The notes below the pieces were generated by a model. The model did no database searches. It saw only the letters and a program-made list of their open reading frames with translations, and was not told the DNA's origin. A stretch of DNA of 37,041 bases from a virus, in IMG/VR virus record IMGVR_UViG_3300020046_009041. One strand, written 5' to 3'. The translations under genes and the position numbers were made by a program. Shown here piece after piece: positions 3,723 to 32,682 of the stretch (position 1 is the first letter of the stretch; each line of letters opens with the position of its first letter).

Positions 3723-5885
3723 TTACTTAGGAAGAAACTCTAACCACGACTTGGCTAAATTCTCCCAGGAATGTTTCTCAATATCAAAATTCACTCTCTC
3801 GCACTTCTTTTCTTGTATCGCATCAACGACAAGCTTAGCATACGTCTCGATATCATTTTGGCTCAAACAGTCCAAATCCACAAGATCTGCCATGCCTTTT
3901 TCTGAAGCTTCTTTAAGAGTGTTCTTCAAAGCTCCATGAGCCCTTGCCACTGGGTAAACTCCACAGGACAACATCTCTCTTGCTGTAATACAACTTGTCT
4001 CGAGAAATTCAGGCACGTAGAGCCAGACTTTCATCTCGCAAAGCTGTTTGGTCAATTGCTTCTGCTCCACATTCCCGTGCATATTAATCCATGATCTAGC
4101 CTGGATCATTTTCTCAAGTCTCACAACCTGATCAATAAGACCCATCTTCTTCATGTTATCAAATCCGTAATAAACGTGCAGTTCTGCATCTGGAATGGAC
4201 TTTCTTACCTCATCCATCACCATAATAACTCGATCTAATCCTCTATCTGGAGAACTTGAGTAAACTACTTTGTTCCCCGTCTTATTCTTAACCAGGTCTT
4301 TAAATCTGTCCGGATTTAGTCCATTGGACGTAATCATGATCTTATCTTCGGGAATAGCTTTCATCCCAGTAATAAAGTCTTTATGGAATTCAGACAAAGC
4401 TAAAACCTTATCGTATTGATGATGATGTTCCATCCCTGGGATAAGAAGATCATGGCACCACAGATAAGTAGGAGCATCTGTAACCTTAATATTGTGTCTC
4501 CATGAAATGTTGGCTTTAGGTTTATGCTTCTTAACATAAGCAGCAAGCGTGTTAACAGGAGCGTAAATAACATCATCGAAAACTTCTTCTTTTTCTCGAT
4601 CGTTAAATACAATCACCTTTTTACCGCTATGCTTTTTCAACCAATAAGCCATCTCTACAACAGCGGTCTCAGATCCTCCAATTCCACGCTCATGATAGAT
4701 CTTTGGGTCCCACTTATAAGGAGAAACACCAGGGCAGCTAATAATGTAAGCATCATCATCCACGCACTCAGATGTGATAACCTCCATGCTAGACTTGATT
4801 CTATCAACTTCTTCAATAATAGCTTTAGACTCTGGGTTGTCTTTGTACTCCAATGCAGCTTGAGCTTCCGCCTTAGCCTTATCCCATTGCTGCATTTGAC
4901 CATAGACTTTAGCCAGCTGGTTTCTTGGGTAAATTCCGTACATATCCCCAAACATAAATAACGGACTAGGACGACTACCACCCTGGCTCTTATCAATACA
5001 CGCTTTTGCGGCATTATATGACGGGATTGCCTCTTCAAGCTTGTGCATGTTGATAAAACTGTCACCAATTATGCAGTAAAATTCTGCACGATGAGGCTCT
5101 AAAGTTAATCCTTGATGGGCAATGTTGATAGCCTGTGGAAACTTTTTGTTCAAAAACAATGAGTAACATAAGTACTGAAGACACAAGATTCTATCATGCA
5201 TCTCAAGATCTAATCTCTGATTAGCCTTTTCAAACCACTCAATAGCCTCTTCTGACTTCTGTGATTCAAATAACTCCTTACCATAATAGTACATCATTCG
5301 AGCATCTAAGGAATCCTTCCTAGAGTCGAACATGCTTAAGTTTCTGTTATGATCTTTCTTTAAATCATCAACAGATCTCATATGCTTAACAGTCCAAGTC
5401 TCGCAAAATGCACTAACAATAGGCTGATTGTCTTTGGCTACCAATCCCTCATGGACAAAATACTTCCAGTAAAACTTTCCGTTGTTTTTAGTAACTCGTT
5501 CTCTAATAAAAGAACAAACAGGTTTACCATTATCATTAGCATAGTGATATGTGGCAATCCAATACTCAGCTAAATGAATAGCCTCTTCTCTAAACTTCTT
5601 AAATGCTTCTTTATTATCTAGATAATCATCTGCATCCAACCACATAATGTAATCGCATTTAGTGTGTGAATACGAATACTCTCTTGCTGCACCAAAATCA
5701 TTCACCCATTTAAAGTGATGTACTTTGGCTCCATACTTTTTTGCGATCTCTACTGTATTATCTGTACTTCCTGTGTCCGTGATGTGGATCTCATCAAAGC
5801 AGCCTTCCACTGACTCCAATACCCTTGGAAGGTTATGCTCTTCATCCTTAACAATCATGCACAATGCTATAGTGGGACGGCTCAT
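3723..5885 (-). CDS. Fusion glycosyltransferase: N-terminal GT-A (family 2-like), central TPR-like repeats, C-terminal GT-B (GT4/group-1-like)
   Basis: ALCMIVKDEEHNLPRVLESV...DEIHITDTGSTDNT...WLDADD (the DxD motif). Helical repeat region at about residues 230-370. C-terminal EX7E block ETSCITAREMLSCGVYPVA. AAAGGAG SD. Confidence 0.8.
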   Translation of the reverse strand: MSRPTIALCMIVKDEEHNLPRVLESVEGCFDEIHITDTGSTDNTVEIAKKYGAKVHHFKWVNDFGAAREYSYSHTKCDYIMWLDADDYLDNKEAFKKFREEAIHLAEYWIATYHYANDNGKPVCSFIRERVTKNNGKFYWKYFVHEGLVAKDNQPIVSAFCETWTVKHMRSVDDLKKDHNRNLSMFDSRKDSLDARMMYYYGKELFESQKSEEAIEWFEKANQRLDLEMHDRILCLQYLCYSLFLNKKFPQAINIAHQGLTLEPHRAEFYCIIGDSFINMHKLEEAIPSYNAAKACIDKSQGGSRPSPLFMFGDMYGIYPRNQLAKVYGQMQQWDKAKAEAQAALEYKDNPESKAIIEEVDRIKSSMEVITSECVDDDAYIISCPGVSPYKWDPKIYHERGIGGSETAVVEMAYWLKKHSGKKVIVFNDREKEEVFDDVIYAPVNTLAAYVKKHKPKANISWRHNIKVTDAPTYLWCHDLLIPGMEHHHQYDKVLALSEFHKDFITGMKAIPEDKIMITSNGLNPDRFKDLVKNKTGNKVVYSSSPDRGLDRVIMVMDEVRKSIPDAELHVYYGFDNMKKMGLIDQVVRLEKMIQARSWINMHGNVEQKQLTKQLCEMKVWLYVPEFLETSCITAREMLSCGVYPVARAHGALKNTLKEASEKGMADLVDLDCLSQNDIETYAKLVVDAIQEKKCERVNFDIEKHSWENLAKSWLEFLPK

Positions 5886-17339: not shown

Positions 17340-18298
17340 TAACCAAATCCATAAATTCTTGATATAGTTCCATCATTACCTGGATCACCAACAGAACCAT
17401 CAGCCAAGCAAGGATTTCCACCATTACCACCAATAGCACTGCAATTAATACTTTCCGTATTATTTAAAGAGATTAAGACAATGACGCCACCACCACCGCC
17501 ACCACCGCCTCCGCCAATATCTCCACCATTACCATCTAAGCCATTTCCCCCTGCTGATCTAAAAAATCCTTGTCCGTAAATATTCTTAGCAGCGCAAACA
17601 ATTATGCCGCCGCCACCACCACCTGCTCCACCAGTTCCACCACCACCTTCACCATTGGAACCACCACCGCCACCACCACCGCCTGACCCACCTTGAAACG
17701 ATTCGTTGGTTGTAGCTACTTTGGCTTGAATCCAATTGATTGCATTTTGATAAAGATTAGATCCGCCTTTATACGAGAATGGATTTCCAGTTACTCCACC
17801 TAATCCACCAGTGGAAAAATTACTTCCACCACCATTTCCACCGTTACCACCATAACTGTTAGTGGCTCCCGCTGCATCCTCACCATTTACGTCAGAGCTA
17901 TCAGCCCCAGCTATTCCGTTACCATATACATTGCCGGCACCAGCGGTCTGACCATTAGCAGAGTTGTCTACTAATCCGTCATTCTTTAAATACTCTTTAC
18001 AGAAAATTCTAAAACCATTTGTTTTTATTGTTCCACTAATACCCACAGTTAATGAGTTATAGTACATATCCCTTGATAGAGTAGTTGTAGCTCCATCTAC
18101 CGTTACATTACCGTCTATCCCAGTTCCAAAAAAGAAATCATTAAAACTAGGTAAACCATCATAATTAGCTGATTGAGTTGTAATTGTGTATTGGCTTAAT
18201 GAAATACCATTAGGAATCTGAAGAGTTGAACTTGCCGCTACTTGAAAAGCAGGCAAAGAAGATCCAATAGAATAAAACGTGTAAAGCGTTTGACTCAT
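17339..18298 (-). CDS. Poly-glycine-tract protein, paralogue 1 (319 aa), fibre-like
   Basis: FGTGIDGNVTV...LSRDMYYNSLTV...GFRIFC N-terminal block. Two Gly runs (GGGGGGGGSNGEGGGGTGGAGGGGGG; GGGGGGGGGG), each followed by a hydrophobic strand (IIVCAAKNIYGQG; VIVLISL). Confidence 0.75.
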   Translation of the reverse strand: MSQTLYTFYSIGSSLPAFQVAASSTLQIPNGISLSQYTITTQSANYDGLPSFNDFFFGTGIDGNVTVDGATTTLSRDMYYNSLTVGISGTIKTNGFRIFCKEYLKNDGLVDNSANGQTAGAGNVYGNGIAGADSSDVNGEDAAGATNSYGGNGGNGGGSNFSTGGLGGVTGNPFSYKGGSNLYQNAINWIQAKVATTNESFQGGSGGGGGGGGSNGEGGGGTGGAGGGGGGIIVCAAKNIYGQGFFRSAGGNGLDGNGGDIGGGGGGGGGGVIVLISLNNTESINCSAIGGNGGNPCLADGSVGDPGNDGTISRIYGFG

Positions 18299-19288: not shown

Positions 19289-20449
19289 TTATGTTCTTAC
19301 TCTAAACACGTTTCCATTAGATCCATCAGCACCAGTTCCACCAGTTCCAGAACCAGCAGCGCCAGTTCCTTTAAGAGCCTGAATGGTTAACGATGTAGCC
19401 GTAGTGTCGTTTTCAGTAATAACAACAACACATCCACCGCCACCACCGCCACCACCTCCAGAGTTACCAGAAGCAGGTGTGAATCCATTTCCACCGTTAG
19501 CTTGAATTGTTCCAGATCCAGTAAGCATCTTTGCGGCTATAATTACAATTCCGCCGCCCGATCCACCACCACCACCAGCAACAGATGTATCACCAGCACC
19601 ACCGCCACCGCCGGCTCCACCAGTGTATTTGGTTGAACCATCTCGTAGAAGCGCACTAATACATGAAGGAAGAGTTCTAATAGCAACAGTTCCACCTAAT
19701 ATAGCAGATGGAACGTTTGCAGCTCCACCACCACCAATAGATCCACCACCAGCAGTTCCACCACTACCACCAGCACCACCAGAGGCATTATTGCTTGCGC
19801 CCCCACCAGAACCATTGGTCGTACTTCCATTACCACCACCACCGCCAGATCCCGCGATAGATCCAGTAGAAGGAGCGCCACCACCAGTTGAGCTAGTAGC
19901 AGTATTTCCGTTGTTTCTGATAGTTCCTTCGCAAGTAACAGTACCAGCGCAAAATAATCTAAATCCTGCTGTTGATAAAACTATTCCATTGTTTACAGTT
20001 AAAGAACTAAACATTGTATCTCTAGACAGAGACGCATTCGAAGAAATTGTGGTAGCACCATCAGATCCGTCACCGAATAGCGCAGAGTTGGTTTGAGTTC
20101 CATAAAGAGTAACCTGAGTAGCACTTTGAGTAACACCAACACCATTGGTTGCACCAATACTTCTAAACTCAAATGTAGCACCAGTAACTTGAGCAAATAA
20201 TGTGGCACCTGAGCCTAAATTAGCCCCATTCATTGCGCCATAAAGAGTAATATCGGTAGCACTTTGAGTAACACCTATACCTAAAGTAACTCCGATAGTT
20301 CTAAATTCTAGATTAGTGCCGCTAGCTTGAGCAAATACAGTCGCGCCAGTACCTAAGTTAGTACCACCAGTGATTGTTCCACCACCACCGCCACCGCCTC
20401 CACCAGCTCCACCTAATGACGTGATGATACCTGTTCCGATAATAGACAT
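19289..20449 (-). CDS. Poly-glycine-tract protein, paralogue 3 (386 aa) with an extra N-terminal duplicated ~43-aa segment
   Basis: FGDGSDGATTI...LSRDTMFSSLTV...GFRLFC; GGGGGSGGGIVIIAAKMLTGSG; GGGGGGGGGCVVVIT. N-terminal repeat GTNLGTGATVFAQASGTNLEFRTIGV... / GANLGSGATLFAQVTGATFEFRSIGA... Confidence 0.75.
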   Translation of the reverse strand: MSIIGTGIITSLGGAGGGGGGGGGTITGGTNLGTGATVFAQASGTNLEFRTIGVTLGIGVTQSATDITLYGAMNGANLGSGATLFAQVTGATFEFRSIGATNGVGVTQSATQVTLYGTQTNSALFGDGSDGATTISSNASLSRDTMFSSLTVNNGIVLSTAGFRLFCAGTVTCEGTIRNNGNTATSSTGGGAPSTGSIAGSGGGGGNGSTTNGSGGGASNNASGGAGGSGGTAGGGSIGGGGAANVPSAILGGTVAIRTLPSCISALLRDGSTKYTGGAGGGGGAGDTSVAGGGGGSGGGIVIIAAKMLTGSGTIQANGGNGFTPASGNSGGGGGGGGGCVVVITENDTTATSLTIQALKGTGAAGSGTGGTGADGSNGNVFRVRT

Positions 20450-27789: not shown

Positions 27790-27954
27790 CTATGGTTCAT
27801 TTTCTATATCGTAACATTCTTTACACATCAAAAAACCAATTCTACAGTACCAGTCGTTTTCAAGTGTAAGAATTGCGTTATCATTCTTTATTTCTTTTGT
27901 GTTATTGCATTTGTCGCATTTAAAATGAATATCATTACCAATTGGAAGGCTCAT
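27790..27954 (-). CDS. Small zinc-ribbon ORF (54 aa) missing from the track: MSLPIGNDIHFKCDKCNNTKEIKNDNAILTLENDWYCRIGFLMCKECYDIENEP
   Basis: Hand translation; ATGA overlap with the stop of 27951..28169; CxxC...CxxC pattern; TAG stop at 27790. Confidence 0.55.
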   Translation of the reverse strand: MSLPIGNDIHFKCDKCNNTKEIKNDNAILTLENDWYCRIGFLMCKECYDIENEP

Positions 27955-28169
27955 TCTTTATCCCACTCCGGTACCATTAACTTATACCTGACGGTCACTT
28001 CTCTAAGCTTCTTGTTAATAAGTTTAACTCTTTTAGGTGGTAAGGCTTTTAGCTTTTTAAATATTAAGATCATCAAATCGTCAGCAAGTATTCCACGAAA
28101 TCCATCCGAGTAATCTACGTTTCTATCTAAATAGTCTTTAATTTCACTCCTGAATTTATTTTCTGTCAT
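27951..28169 (-). CDS. Small protein, paralogue A (72 aa), C-terminus LPPKRVKLINKKLREVTVRYKLMVPEWDKE
   Basis: C-terminal ~30 aa are near-identical to those of 28869..29096. Confidence 0.65.
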   Translation of the reverse strand: MTENKFRSEIKDYLDRNVDYSDGFRGILADDLMILIFKKLKALPPKRVKLINKKLREVTVRYKLMVPEWDKE

Positions 28170-28209: not shown

Positions 28210-28872
28210 TTAACGTCTAATTTCCCATACAATCTCAAAGTTATCACAGCTATAGTACATATCAGGCACTAAATTACTCTTCTTGATCATTTCTTCAAAC
28301 TTGGCAAACTTCGTAGAGTACTCATCATCATTCTGCAGAGCCCTGCGAACAAGCTCCACACAAGATAGATGACTATCATCTGCCACATCGAAAAGATTAT
28401 CGTAAAATTTTCCTTCTTGTTTCAACAAGCAATCAAGTGTTTCGACCCAGTCTTCATCCGTATACCCTTTCGGCCTTAGCAAACAAACTGAGTCACAATC
28501 AAACACTTCCATGAAAGTGCTAAAATGCACACCAGATCCAGTTGCTTCCATTAGCTTAAAGTCATTATCGTTTCTGATATTACCATCATCAACATTCATC
28601 AAAGCATGACTCCAGTAACCCCACTTGCCAGTTTTGAGCCAACTTGCTAAACCTATAAAGTAGGTAGTTAGATGAGTCTTACGTCTTATCAAGATAACGT
28701 AATAGTTCTTAGCTAAATTTGTTCTCAAGTAATCATGGTCTGACTCTTTCAAATCCCAGTAAATACCTCGATTGAACAAAGCTTTGATTGAGTTCCACTT
28801 AATAGGCGATATGAAAGTTAGTAAGAACCAATTGATTAACTTATATTGCCAGGTTTGATATCTTGGATTCAT
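28210..28872 (-). CDS. Permuted papain-fold (NlpC/P60 superfamily, YaeF/YiiX-like) hydrolase (about 220 aa; track start is 28884)
   Basis: YWSHALMNV...LMEATGSGV...QEGKFYDNLFDVADDSHLSCVELVRRAL parallels the His...Cys order (SHVG...YCTELV) of YiiX-type proteins from memory. ATG 28872 is ATGA-coupled, with GGAG upstream. Confidence 0.6.
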   Translation of the reverse strand: MNPRYQTWQYKLINWFLLTFISPIKWNSIKALFNRGIYWDLKESDHDYLRTNLAKNYYVILIRRKTHLTTYFIGLASWLKTGKWGYWSHALMNVDDGNIRNDNDFKLMEATGSGVHFSTFMEVFDCDSVCLLRPKGYTDEDWVETLDCLLKQEGKFYDNLFDVADDSHLSCVELVRRALQNDDEYSTKFAKFEEMIKKSNLVPDMYYSCDNFEIVWEIRR

Positions 28873-29096
28873 TCCTTCTCCCATTCAGGCACCATCAGTT
28901 TGCAATGTGTGATAACGCCACTGCGCAGCTTCTTGTTTATGAGCTTAGGTCTTTTAGGTGGCAGCATACCGATAGCGATTTCAAGGTAATCTAAAATCTT
29001 ATATGCTAAATATTCGGCGTCTTCGGTTGTACCTTTATAATCTTTATCAAAAGCGATTATTGAACATAAATGATCGGCGCATTCCTTACGTTTCAT
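28869..29096 (-). CDS. Small protein, paralogue B (75 aa), C-terminus LPPKRPKLINKKLRSGVITHCKLMVPEWEKE
   Basis: GGGAGA SD; C-terminal block shared with 27951..28169. Confidence 0.65.
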   Translation of the reverse strand: MKRKECADHLCSIIAFDKDYKGTTEDAEYLAYKILDYLEIAIGMLPPKRPKLINKKLRSGVITHCKLMVPEWEKE

Positions 29097-29146: not shown

Positions 29147-29404
29147 TCATTTCAAAATTCCAAAACTCTCAACGGCGCTCATTTGCACGTACCAATTGTG
29201 TGGAAGCTTCTGCGCGTTTTCCCATTCCTTGGAATCAAAACCACCAGTCTCATAAACGATCTCTGCTTTTTCGAGAAGAACGCAGGTGTCATTCACTCCT
29301 ATTAGTTTTCCGCAGTAGATATAACTATTACAAAAGATTGTAATCCGCTCTCCGATTAGTTTTAAAAATCCTTCTTCCTTATCCTCAACAATGTACTTCT
29401 TCAT
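29147..29404 (-). CDS. Hypothetical protein (85 aa)
   Basis: AAGGAG 6 nt upstream of the ATG at 29404. Confidence 0.7.
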   Translation of the reverse strand: MKKYIVEDKEEGFLKLIGERITIFCNSYIYCGKLIGVNDTCVLLEKAEIVYETGGFDSKEWENAQKLPHNWYVQMSAVESFGILK

Positions 29405-29416
29405 TTTGATCTCCTT

Positions 29417-29731
29417 TTATTTTACTAAACCTGATCCTGACCATGGCCATGACACTGACCCTGACCCTAACCCTGACCATGACCCTAACCGTGACCCTAA
29501 CCCTGACCGTGACCATGACCCTGACCGTGACCCTAACCGTGACCCTAACCGTGACCCTAACCGTGACCCTAACCCTGACCGTGACCATGACCCTGACCGT
29601 GACCATGACCCTAACCCTGACCGTGACCCTAACCGTGACCCTAACCCTAACCCTGACCGTGACCCTAACCCTGACCGTGACCATGACCCTGACCGTGACC
29701 GTGATGTTTTTTTATATTGTTTTTTAGTCAT
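29417..29731 (-). CDS. Basic low-complexity repeat protein (104 aa): MTKKQYKKT + (SR/SG/SW/LG)n
   Basis: ATG overlaps the TGA of the upstream gene (ATGA), with GAGGA upstream. Its TAA lies just before the SD of the next gene. The body is the hexamer array. Confidence 0.55.
   Translation of the reverse strand: MTKKQYKKTSRSRSGSWSRSGLGSRSGLGLGSRLGSRSGLGSWSRSGSWSRSGLGSRLGSRLGSRLGSRSGSWSRSGLGSRLGSWSGLGSGSVSWPWSGSGLVK
29431..29706. repeat. Hexanucleotide array, 46 units (NTRACC on the plus strand; GGTCAG/GGTCAC/GGTCAT/GGTTAG on the minus)
   Basis: Hand parse: 29455-29700 is 41 perfect units drawn from only four words (CTGACC 11, GTGACC 13, CTAACC 12, ATGACC 5). Confidence 0.95.
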
Positions 29732-30171
29732 ACATCCTCAATTTCAAAAATTTCCAGGAGCGTGGAGCGTAGGTGGTTTTTTCTAATAGGTTTATATACG
29801 CCTTTATTAAATTCATCCCAATTTTCTCTTGTATGTAACATATCTATTTCGCCATCGTCATCCAACCACACATGCTCCCAGTGCTCGATCTTGCGGGTTG
29901 GTTTCTTATCAAGTTGTGTAATAACAATACGGTCGGGTTGTACACCGAGCGGATCTTTCCATATTTCTTTCCCATGCTGCGGCTGTGACACCTTACCCTC
30001 CACATGAAACAAGGATGGTTCTTTGTGCCAGGAGTGCGATTTACCATCAAGACAGAACCCAACACTGGCATTATTAAATTCTGCAAGCAAGGACGCATGA
30101 TCTATATAAGCAACCACACCCTCAACACCGCACCACGTGACTTTGTCGCCTACGAAAAATGATTTGTTCAT
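29728..30171 (-). CDS. Hypothetical protein (147 aa)
   Basis: Long ORF between the two repeat ORFs; no motif recognised. Confidence 0.7.
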   Translation of the reverse strand: MNKSFFVGDKVTWCGVEGVVAYIDHASLLAEFNNASVGFCLDGKSHSWHKEPSLFHVEGKVSQPQHGKEIWKDPLGVQPDRIVITQLDKKPTRKIEHWEHVWLDDDGEIDMLHTRENWDEFNKGVYKPIRKNHLRSTLLEIFEIEDV

Positions 30172-30306: not shown

Positions 30307-30561
30307 TCAGCCGTAGCCGTCGCCGTTGCCGTTGCCGTCGCCGTTGCCGTAGCCGTCGCCGTTGCCGTTGCCGTCGCCGTTGCCGTAGCCGTAGCCGTTG
30401 CCGTCGCCGTAGCCGTTGCCGTCGCCGTTGCCGTTGCCGTCGCCGTCGCCGTAGCCGTTGCCGTTGCCGTAGCCGTAGCCGTAGCCGTTGCCGTCGCCGT
30501 AGCCGTTGCAGTAAGATGATTGAGACAAATCACCAATCATTACTTGATTAGTTTTTTCCAT
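30307..30561 (-). CDS. Acidic dipeptide-repeat protein (84 aa): MEKTNQVMIGDLSQSSYC + (NG/YG/DG)x33
   Basis: AAGGAG 5 nt upstream of the ATG at 30561; body is (GGC-[A/G/T]AC)n; TGA at 30307. Confidence 0.6.
   Translation of the reverse strand: MEKTNQVMIGDLSQSSYCNGYGDGNGYGYGYGNGNGYGDGDGNGNGDGNGYGDGNGYGYGNGDGNGNGDGYGNGDGNGNGDGYG
30313..30510. repeat. Hexanucleotide array, 33 units (GTNGCC on the plus strand; GGCTAC/GGCGAC/GGCAAC on the minus)
   Basis: Hand parse: 32 perfect units (GTAGCC 10, GTCGCC 9, GTTGCC 13) plus one degenerate unit. GTGGCC is never used. Confidence 0.95.
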
Positions 30562-30875
30562 TTAGACTCCTTACACTTGAGTGACGCAATCTCTGTTAGC
30601 TCATGGAATTCAACTTCTGGCACTGGATCTAGTACTGTTTTATCGGTGGGTCCATTCATAGCTATCTCACCAAGTCCTCTGGTCGTTCCCCAGTTTCGGA
30701 TGTTGTAACCTTTCAGCAATGATCTATGTATCCCGTCTTCCGATATGACATACTCACCAACCATAACCCATCCACGTTGCAAGATCACGATTCTAATATC
30801 TCGTTCACACTTACAGTCTTCTTCAGGACATAGTACGTCTTTTATTTTCTGCAACACTTCTTCACTTATTTCCAT
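30540..30875 (-). CDS. Conserved-looking phage protein (111 aa) with an RGWVMVG...IRNWGTTRGLGEIAMNGPT motif
   Basis: The motif resembles a recurrent phage DUF family from memory (unverified). Confidence 0.65.
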   Translation of the reverse strand: MEISEEVLQKIKDVLCPEEDCKCERDIRIVILQRGWVMVGEYVISEDGIHRSLLKGYNIRNWGTTRGLGEIAMNGPTDKTVLDPVPEVEFHELTEIASLKCKESKWKKLIK

Positions 30876-31959: not shown

Positions 31960-32195
31960 AACCTGATTCTATTTACACTTATAAATGCGCCAATGGTTCA
32001 CTGCTTCTAGATCGTGTAAGGCATAACATAGATTACTATGTGGAATTAGTTAGCTGCCCTGAAACACCTTATGTTTTTAAAAGAAGGGTTAAGAATTGTT
32101 TAACTTATCTTAAGAAGGAAGGTGACTTGCGGGCTTTATCAATTCCAGAGCAAAAATTGAAAGTCCATCGGCAATCCTTCTTGCCAGTAAGCTAA
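31935..32195 (+). CDS. Possible small basic protein (86 aa)
   Basis: Fills the 186-nt gap between the amidase and VRR-NUC genes, where the minus strand is closed. It has no SD and overlaps the amidase 3' end by 86 nt. Confidence 0.3.
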   Translation: MPHKRKPPKPDSIYTYKCANGSLLLDRVRHNIDYYVELVSCPETPYVFKRRVKNCLTYLKKEGDLRALSIPEQKLKVHRQSFLPVS

Positions 32196-32682
32196 TAGTC
32201 TCATCCTTCTTTAACCAAGCCTCTTGATCACTGTTTGTTATAAACTCACACTCCACTAATGCAGATGGAATCTTAACACCGTGTAGAACGTAAATCTTTT
32301 TAGGATAATCATGGCTAGGACTTAACTTTACGCCCCTATTTGTGTGAGTCGCATCAATAAGCTTAGTAATTAGAATTTTTGCTAACTTCAAACTAGATGG
32401 ATTAACGTCCGAGTAAACAACTTCCATGCCTTGAGCGTTGGAAGTGCTGCCGTTGCAATGGATGCTCACCATTAGGTCACATCCCCTGGCTGTTACGCAT
32501 CTATCATGCAATGAAACAAACTCATCTCTTTTTCTGGTCATGACAACTATGCAGCCAAGCTCTCTTTCTAGAATAGCTTTAAGCTGCAAGGATATTTCAA
32601 GAACTACGTCTTTTTCTTTAAGCCCAGTTGGTCCTACGGCCCCGGGATCTTGCCCGTGCCCAGGATCAATGCAGATTTTCAC
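32110..32682 (-). CDS. N-acetylmuramoyl-L-alanine amidase (Amidase_3) endolysin
   Basis: MKICIDPGHGQDPGAVGPTGLKEKDVVLEISL...VMTRKRDEFVSLHDR...VSIHCNGS...GMEVVYS. Confidence 0.85.
   Translation of the reverse strand: MKICIDPGHGQDPGAVGPTGLKEKDVVLEISLQLKAILERELGCIVVMTRKRDEFVSLHDRCVTARGCDLMVSIHCNGSTSNAQGMEVVYSDVNPSSLKLAKILITKLIDATHTNRGVKLSPSHDYPKKIYVLHGVKIPSALVECEFITNSDQEAWLKKDETISLLARRIADGLSIFALELIKPASHLPS

Follow-up and report, generated by a model that had tools for sequence, protein, structure and literature searches.

The stretch of viral DNA analysed here, IMG/VR record IMGVR_UViG_3300020046_009041 (37,041 nucleotides, hereafter the window), derives from a phage with the standard genetic code and contains, on the minus strand at 29417-29731, an open reading frame (ORF) formed around an array of hexamers. 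This ORF is best read as a real protein-coding gene translated in the frame that yields serine-based dipeptides (the S frame). Very probably it is a member of a family of S-[G/R/W] repeat proteins and belongs to a two-gene module, in which the family is joined with a small protein predicted to adopt the Sm/LSm fold. The explanation that fits best overall is a real gene of a widespread family, placed in an Sm-fold module and encoding an Arg/Trp-rich partner that acts on nucleic acid, and this fuller account seems reasonably probable. Both the repeat proteins and their pairing with an Sm-fold gene appear to be new: neither the literature library searched (by peptide string and for hexanucleotide ORFs or low-complexity small proteins of phages) nor the family databases yielded an earlier description.

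The repeat gene and its reading frame

A preliminary description of this locus reported 41 perfect hexamers drawn from four words at 29455-29700, and splitting the minus strand returns exactly that number (GGTCAC 13, GGTTAG 12, GGTCAG 11, and GGTCAT 5). The gene-like context was likewise as described: the ATG overlaps the TGA of the upstream gene (ATGA), GAGGA stands just upstream, and the terminal TAA is followed by AAGGAG and then by the ATG of the next gene at 29404 (Table 1). The product comprises a nine-residue leader, MTKKQYKKT (net charge +4), and about 47 dipeptides, 41 of them perfect and about six degenerate, with the TAA three codons past the last repeat. It is very basic, as had been proposed (isoelectric point (pI) 12, charge +18.5), has no signal peptide or transmembrane segment, and is probably disordered. 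The AlphaFold2 (AF2) model of the repeat protein shows no confident fold (predicted local distance difference test (pLDDT) 52.9), which agrees with the earlier claim of disorder but is weak evidence for it, because the model was run on a single sequence without an alignment.

At least 81 distinct ORFs in IMG/VR follow the same plan, i.e., an ATG, a short conserved leader, (S-[G/R/W])n, and a stop at or near the array end, all in one frame. Their median length is 71 amino acids (aa) and their pI 12, with S at 40%, G at 17%, R at 14%, and W at 11%, and the window ORF shares this architecture. Openness alone is uninformative on the frame, because five of the six frames are open across the window array. 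Among internal IMG/VR arrays of at least 14 units (n = 25, with pure TTAGGG telomere-type runs set aside), the S frame has an ATG 8-49 codons upstream in every case and a stop no more than 4 codons from the perfect array end in 18, whereas upstream ATGs are present in 7 of the 25 for the G[HQ] frame and the ATGs of the V frame lie mostly only inside or beside the array. Over 78 viral arrays, upstream ATGs number 63 for the S frame, 20 for G[HQ], and 24 for antisense D[PRH]. This comparison across loci, together with the conserved leaders, backs the frame that had been preferred earlier, which runs from the ATG at 29731 through SR, SG, SW, and LG dipeptides.

The leaders are of two kinds, namely class A, 'MNxA[IVL]LRxG[YF][DE]xS', and class B, which is rich in Lys and Arg (e.g., 'MIRGKKQKY') and includes the leader of the window ORF. 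In class-A leaders (n = 18), the summed nucleotide entropy at the first, second, and third codon positions is 10.5, 6.8, and 16.3 bits, and their invariant Gly uses all four GGN codons; class-B leaders, in turn, use synonymous Lys, Arg, and Tyr codons. Variation that falls so heavily on third positions points to purifying selection on the translated frame. As a separate observation, S-[GRW] genes occur in some phages (L294, L334, L346, L149, L521-L524, and L525) as tandem groups of 2-6 paralogues that overlap at ATGA or GTGA, and the older tandem copies are degenerate, with Y, E, and F insertions.

Dual coding, in which (V-[T/R/M])n, (G-[H/Q])n through TAG read-through, or antisense [L/M/V]-T or D-[P/H/R] proteins would arise by slippage at A7 or from a different frame or strand, has very little probability. 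The features that invite it are real: in addition to the open frames, the A7 tract lies directly before the array and the -1 frame (V[TRM]) is open to 29385, both as the preliminary description had noted, and cellular genomes mostly read the same hexamers antisense, as D-[PHR] linkers in large ORFs. However, the openness is a property of the unit sequence (as GTC and ANG codons cannot be stops, the V frame is bound to be open). Moreover, runs of six or more A occur in 7 of the 81 family leaders, and the context TAT AAA AAA ACA holds no slippery heptamer of the form X_XXY_YYZ in frame, both of which speak against the second protein that had been envisaged from A7 slippage. The G frame contains 12 TAGs, TAG ends 6 of 38 long ORFs in the window (TAA ends 25 and TGA 7), and the window has no tRNA gene; by the counts given above, the G, V, and antisense frames mostly lack an upstream ATG. 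Two recoding schemes were also considered. Reassignment of TAG to Gln, under which the array would continue the frame of the upstream gene as (GH/GQ)n, was rejected, since TAG is a normal stop, no tRNA was found, and the G frame has no upstream ATG in 18 of the 25 long arrays. Read-through of the TGA of the upstream 147-aa gene would reach the first TAG after only about 19 codons.

The cellular arrays form a subject of their own. GGTCA[C/G/T] hexamer arrays are present in genome contigs of bacteria and archaea belonging to many phyla (at least 120 contigs, L399-L518). They are mostly short and are most often read antisense, the D-[P/H/R] linkers lying in large ORFs; in 50 of 90, an ATG is located over 30 codons upstream. 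These linkers are a different use of the same DNA repeat.

A small partner of predicted Sm fold

When ORFs within 3 kb of the 81 repeat genes were clustered, two partner families were obtained. Fam1 (about 85-95 aa) is present at 31 loci, including the window, adjacent to the repeat ORF on the same strand with a median gap of 5.5 nt, and Fam2 (about 110-120 aa) is present at 26 loci, also adjacent on the same strand, with a median gap of -1.5 nt (ATGA-type overlap); the two families are homologous (hhalign 96.6%, E 7e-10). One or the other adjoins 67 of the 81 repeat ORFs, and most of the remaining 14 are near contig ends. Usually, the partner lies immediately upstream of the repeat ORF, with overlapping stop and start, and translation of the two genes is often coupled. 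The kind of leader varies with the kind of partner: basic leaders (net charge of at least +3) are found in 33 of 36 Fam1-linked ORFs, whereas a class-A leader accompanies Fam2 in 30 of 31. The window ORF fits this pattern, as it has a co-oriented, adjacent Fam1 gene and a basic leader. These comparisons show that the S-[G/R/W] family forms a two-gene module with the small protein of predicted Sm/LSm fold.

The fold itself is predicted with high model confidence. AF2 run on the 85-aa partner with a 46-sequence alignment gave a pLDDT of 93.7 and a predicted template modelling score (pTM) of 0.82, and DSSP assigned one helix and six strands, in keeping with the N-terminal helix and strongly bent five-stranded beta-sheet by which the Sm fold is recognised. 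The best 50 Foldseek matches in the PDB are all Sm/LSm proteins (the SmD3-SmB subcomplex, Lsm1-7, Lsm2-8, and archaeal Sm), with probability 1.0 and template modelling scores of 0.56-0.68. Searches with sequences and profiles were less informative: Fam1 has no significant match in Pfam, PHROGs, or PADLOC and only a sub-threshold hit in NCBIfam (MM0924 family, E 0.01), and the profile of the Sm-like protein gave one spurious match (E 1.7) against PDB sequences.

Fam1 has 107 close homologues, all annotated as 'hypothetical' or unnamed, and 525 cluster representatives at 50% identity. A reverse test that started from Fam1 homologues, and was thus free of array-based selection, found one or more adjacent S-[GRW] ORFs in 6 of 6 cases with DNA, although a scope of only six lineages limits its weight. 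Several of the contigs break off inside the array. Among six longer-than-usual Fam1 homologues inspected, no fusion with the repeat was seen. Three contigs of metagenome-assembled genomes (L407, L431, and L496) carry Fam2 and resemble binned phage.

Evolution of the array and proposed function

The array is regular at more than one level. Tandem Repeats Finder reports a period of 6 (45.8 copies) and a higher-order period of 36 nt, i.e., six units (7.7 copies, 85% matches), and a 4-unit pattern has 38 matches against 0.00 expected from 100 shuffles. The succession of units described earlier is true within the window array, where GGTCAC is followed by GGTCAG (eight times) or GGTTAG (five) only and GGTCAT by GGTCAC (four) or GGTCAG (one) only; it is not a family-wide rule, because SRSR and SWSW runs occur in other members. 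Two contigs from other Joint Genome Institute (JGI) samples (L120 and L121) represent the same phage, and their arrays equal that of the window except for a 12-nt indel of two units, with one additional T/G unit change in L120. Since a nearly identical array was assembled from three samples, it is real rather than an assembly artefact, and its length is variable. The comparison of unit numbers between relatives that had been proposed at the outset thus reveals a 2-unit difference, which keeps the frame because the unit is 6 nt long. As the array change alters only the length of the protein, the frame or promoter-spacing switch of a phase-variable contingency locus is lacking. The array also differs from telomeric TTAGGG DNA in that it is internal, lies inside an ORF, and has at most two consecutive GGTTAG units. 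Long pure TTAGGG arrays (up to 77 units) are present in many 'viral' IMG/VR contigs (L070, L088, L110, L093, L022, and others); these are of the telomere type, derive probably from eukaryotic or eukaryote-virus sequence, and have no relation to the mixed arrays.

Neutral microsatellite expansion in a dispensable small ORF, or an assembly artefact, is accordingly a very unlikely source of the array, even though unit number differs between samples, contigs often break inside arrays, and no array was seen at the loci fetched for more distant relatives of the 147-aa gene. In addition to the agreement among the three samples, the family is spread over many contigs, its leaders and its partner are conserved, it has tandem paralogues, and the R/G/W heterogeneity persists although the rest of the unit is homogenised.

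A comparison of codons between arrays argues that the protein, and not the hexamer, is conserved. Within an ORF, the Ser codon is about 96% uniform, and yet the dominant codon among the 81 ORFs is TCA in 58, TCG in 15, and TCT in 8; Arg is encoded by CGG (533 codons) and AGG (168), Gly by GGG in 915 of 986 cases, and Trp necessarily by TGG. A degenerate-codon scan of IMG/VR extended the search beyond TCA-based arrays, and arrays reached independently through the partner gene use TCT and AGG. Degenerate tandem paralogues ('MKMFRSRSWSASRSRWSRSGSESRYWS...') keep the S/R/W/G composition without strict dipeptide or hexamer periodicity, and the degenerate 3' end of the window array contains the synonymous Gly codons GGA and GGT. 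The preliminary description had called CGG and GGG atypical for this genome, as they indeed are (3% of Arg and 10% of Gly codons in the 38 long ORFs; window GC content 40.9%), and had traced the fixed codons either to unit expansion or to a constraint at the DNA or RNA level. The former agrees with the data, whereas the latter does not, given the TCG and TCT Ser codons and AGG Arg codons found elsewhere.

It is reasonable to assume that the regularity of the hexamer is a by-product of gene evolution. Slippage or unequal exchange would add and remove units, as in the 2-unit indel between samples, and concerted evolution would homogenise the unit, leaving the Ser codon uniform within an array and different between arrays. 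The second codon would be held as NGG, because Trp has only TGG and a change of its third base gives a stop or Cys, so that the first base of this codon would be the sole position kept heterogeneous, giving the R/G/W mix. Since heterogeneity persists in an otherwise homogenised unit, it can be argued that the mix is selected. The TTA-GGG (Leu-Gly) units would be C-to-T derivatives of TCA-GGG, and in other members of the family, too, Ser is most often replaced by Leu. Mutagenesis of the variable base resembling that of diversity-generating retroelements was considered and rejected, as the variation is not linked to adenine and the A of the Ser codon is invariant within the array; no search for a reverse transcriptase was made.

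It is rather improbable that the array acts mainly as RNA or DNA, either as a GGUC-NN platform wrapping an Sm-like ring or as a G-quadruplex element, with translation incidental. TRAP and Hfq bind repeated triplets, and GGTC, four of the six positions, is invariant across arrays that differ in their Ser codon; a fold of the ring-forming, RNA-binding type is encoded next door, and the 36-nt period would suit such a platform. However, conservation of the leader, which lies outside the repeat, is at the protein level, with most of its variation in third codon positions; only one frame shows the arrangement of ATG and stop, and degenerate paralogues hold the composition while losing strict periodicity. 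Moreover, the Ser wobble position is uniform within arrays and the first base of the next codon is mixed, which would not be expected from an RNA motif. As for G-quadruplexes, the sense strand has 22 GGG tracts, rather than the approx. 23 first counted, and contains GGGTTAGGGTTAGGG, as had been noted. The proposed quadruplex potential is present only in a long-loop form: four motifs with loops of up to 12 nt, the sole such motifs in the window, were predicted, and none of the canonical kind (four tracts of at least three G with loops of 1-7 nt) was found. The ViennaRNA minimum free energy of the array falls from -44.3 to -56.2 kcal/mol when G-quadruplexes are allowed. A quadruplex is weakly indicated at best and would be a side effect of the GGG Gly codons.

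Returning to the translated protein, its composition and gene linkage suggest a role in binding nucleic acid. Sm-family proteins are typically ring-shaped RNA binders, and several of them bear low-complexity tails, which consist of RG repeats in eukaryotic SmD1, SmD3, SmB, and LSm4 and of a Gly-rich repeat in Acinetobacter Hfq. RS domains and repeats, for their part, contact RNA. The repeat protein might accordingly be a flexible, Arg/Trp-rich partner of the Sm-like protein, similar to an RS or RG tail, in which a Ser-spaced chain with a conserved docking leader would add multivalent contacts with nucleic acid, and the two proteins together would act on nucleic acid, most likely RNA, by binding, remodelling, or condensing it. 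An RNA-related role exerted together with the Sm-like partner is a tentative possibility. A more elaborate scheme, in which a ring-forming Sm-fold protein and separate, length-evolving S-(R/G/W) polypeptides docking via the leader make up a two-component phage system, i.e., a multivalent RNA-binding or condensate particle that captures host or phage RNA, with the (N/Y/D)-G ORF described below and its partner as a parallel module, is unlikely as stated.

Among known systems, the phage module seems closest to the combination of an Sm fold with an Arg-rich low-complexity repeat, here apparently split into two genes and based on Ser and Trp. As in the eukaryotic Sm/LSm proteins with RG tails, an Sm fold is associated with an Arg/Gly-rich dipeptide segment; however, the repeat is here a separate polypeptide with its own ATG and consists of Ser-X with abundant Trp instead of Gly-Arg, and the partner, a putative ring former and RNA binder, has no Pfam LSM match. 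Acinetobacter Hfq is also an Sm-family protein linked to a low-complexity hexapeptide repeat, (GGFGGQ)n, but the repeat there is fused in cis to a cellular rather than a phage protein and has no Arg, Trp, and Ser periodicity. The Ser-Arg runs, strong basicity, and disorder recall the RS domains of SR splicing factors and the SR-rich nucleocapsid or core proteins of viruses, whereas the phage protein has no RNA recognition motif or other folded domain (no Pfam domain was found), its SR dipeptides make up about a third (13 of the 41 perfect units) with the rest being SG, SW, and LG, and no kinase is evident. C9orf72 GGGGCC likewise combines a hexanucleotide array open in several frames with dipeptide repeats, some containing Arg, and with G-rich RNA; the phage array is instead AUG-started in one conserved frame, under purifying selection and with one heterogeneous position, and is thus not a case of repeat-associated non-AUG translation of a pathological expansion. 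Among phages, GoF, MotB.1, and Frd.2 of T4 are described as small early proteins with a predicted LSm-like fold and suspected RNA roles (PMC12152347). These are not known to be similar in sequence to the window proteins, and the abstract and outline of that paper mention no repeat-protein partner.

The composition of the family (R 14%, W 11%, net charge of about +10 to +18) might also suit a membrane-active cationic peptide for lysis, host killing, or exclusion, with the Sm-fold protein as chaperone or immunity factor, and a tight coupling of two genes resembles toxin/antidote layouts; (RW)n peptides are known antimicrobials. This alternative is nonetheless given a low probability: the alternate Ser and the abundant Gly dilute amphipathicity, the protein is devoid of a signal peptide or transmembrane segment, PADLOC gave no match, and the setting is one of small co-oriented genes, with the Amidase_3 endolysin (32110-32682) about 2.4 kb away rather than adjacent.

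Several points weigh against the proposal that the repeat protein acts on nucleic acid with an Sm-like partner. The function is drawn from composition and gene linkage. The Sm sequence signature is missing, as no Pfam LSM/Hfq match was obtained at E up to 1, and the canonical Sm1/Sm2 RNA-pocket residues are absent on reading the sequence; RNA binding by the Sm-like protein is, for these reasons, only putative. Linkage and the co-variation of leader and partner could reflect co-inheritance and not physical contact. Furthermore, the window partner lies downstream, the reverse of the arrangement in most members (30 upstream versus 6 downstream); repeat gene and then Sm-like gene is also the order at three other loci (L095, L127, and L143). 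It should also be noted that the family was retrieved mainly by DNA patterns, which biases it toward perfect arrays, and that a conserved TCN-NGG cannot formally be told apart from an RNA motif GGUC recurring every 6 nt.

Neighbouring genes, a second module, and annotation

Table 1. Features of the repeat locus and its surroundings in the window
Feature	Position	Strand	Remarks
Gene for dipeptide-repeat protein, 104 aa	29417..29731	(-)	Leader MTKKQYKKT, (S/L)-(R/G/W) dipeptides, end ...SGSGLVK, TAA
Lys-rich leader, class B (basic)	29705..29731	(-)	ATGA overlap with upstream gene; holds A7 (29707-29713), read as AAA Lys codons
Perfect 41-hexamer array	29455..29700	(-)	Coding-frame pairs TCA-CGG (SR), TCA-GGG (SG), TCA-TGG (SW), TTA-GGG (LG)
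Degenerate 3' array end, five units	29425..29454	(-)	TGTCAT, GGCCAT, GGTCAG, GATCAG, GTTTAG; S V S W P W S G S G
Partner gene, 85-aa protein of predicted Sm/LSm fold (Fam1)	29147..29404	(-)	Starts 13 nt after repeat-ORF stop; neighbour clustering, AF2, Foldseek
Upstream gene, 147 aa, function not assigned	29728..30171	(-)	TGA overlaps repeat-ORF ATG
Second dipeptide-repeat gene, 84 aa	30307..30561	(-)	MEKTNQVMIGDLSQSSYC, then (N/Y/D)-G repeats; hexamer array GGC[A/T/G]AC at 30310-30513; acidic, pI 4.05, charge -10.5
111-aa gene overlapping start of second repeat ORF	30540..30875	(-)	Family A3, motif ..IVVLxRGWVxVG..IRxWGTTKGLGEL..

Two relatives were found through the 147-aa gene. In one of them (L122), the same ATGA junction starts an ordinary 76-aa gene, and neither an array nor an Sm-like gene is present in the fetched locus; by eye, this 76-aa gene looks related to two paralogous small genes of the window, 27951-28169 (-) and 28869-29096 (-), which are 42% identical (E 1e-14) and share the C-terminal motif LPPKRxKLINKKLR...KLMVPEW(D/E)KE. 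In the other, a close relative (L123), the contig begins inside the Sm-like gene, the product of which is 95% identical, and is thus uninformative on the array; this gene is followed by a 40-aa hydrophobic ORF (241-363) and then by a 242-aa version of the 147-aa protein. The order of genes near the module is therefore fluid. Searches beyond these loci added little: megablast of the region against INPHARED gave no match, the repeat protein as a homologue query gave 8000 word candidates with none significant, nothing meaningful was found in Pfam, PHROGs, NCBIfam, or PADLOC, and in the window Rfam gave no hits and promoter and terminator scans nothing above background.

A second dipeptide-repeat gene lies about 600 bp upstream of the first. 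Arrays of GGC[A/T/G]AC are present at no fewer than (at least) 120 IMG/VR loci; of 91 such arrays, 78 have an ATG upstream in the G[NYD] frame, as against 18 and 12 in the other sense frames. Read in another frame, the array of the window gives (TA)n with perfect synonymy, apparently as a by-product, and the TrAA12 and ser_rich matches of the second repeat ORF look like low-complexity hits. In 42 of 74 cases, a member of the 111-aa family is the direct neighbour of a G[NYD] ORF, lying mostly on its upstream side, so that a second module of a small protein and a dipeptide-repeat ORF exists; homology of this family to the Sm-like families was not shown (hhalign 5.5% and 0.6%). The idea that the two arrays form a charge-complementary pair (+18.5 and -10.5) was rejected, as they co-occur at the same locus only in the window phage and in one other contig (L163).

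Elsewhere in the window, large minus-strand ORFs contain further tandem repeats (17616-17675, 19725-19781, and 20100-20361), which include CCACCA-type repeats of 15-21 nt and a 138-nt duplication. The 720-aa product of the gene at 3723-5885 (-) is distantly similar (27% identity) to proteins of Manatee Spring metagenome phages that are annotated as glycosyltransferases, and the gene is part of a long co-oriented run of large ORFs that fills most of the window.

The repeat genes are largely invisible to annotation, and yet the module is common (525 partner representatives and at least 81 repeat ORFs). In the loci examined, the repeat ORFs usually receive no gene call, and hidden Markov model searches filter out their products because of low complexity. 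GenBank MW202825.1, for instance, carries no annotation for the Sm-like gene or for the first repeat ORF. A simple rule for annotating such arrays would be to choose the frame that has a conserved leader and adjoins an Sm-like gene. The locus would also provide an example of a protein-coding microsatellite that is held at mixed composition under concerted evolution. More generally, a conserved phage gene pair appears to link an RNA-chaperone fold to an Arg/Trp-rich repeat protein. If the reading as an RNA particle or condensate holds, prokaryotic viruses would have a counterpart of the Sm cores with RG tails, and the biology of Sm proteins with repeat tails would extend to bacteriophages.

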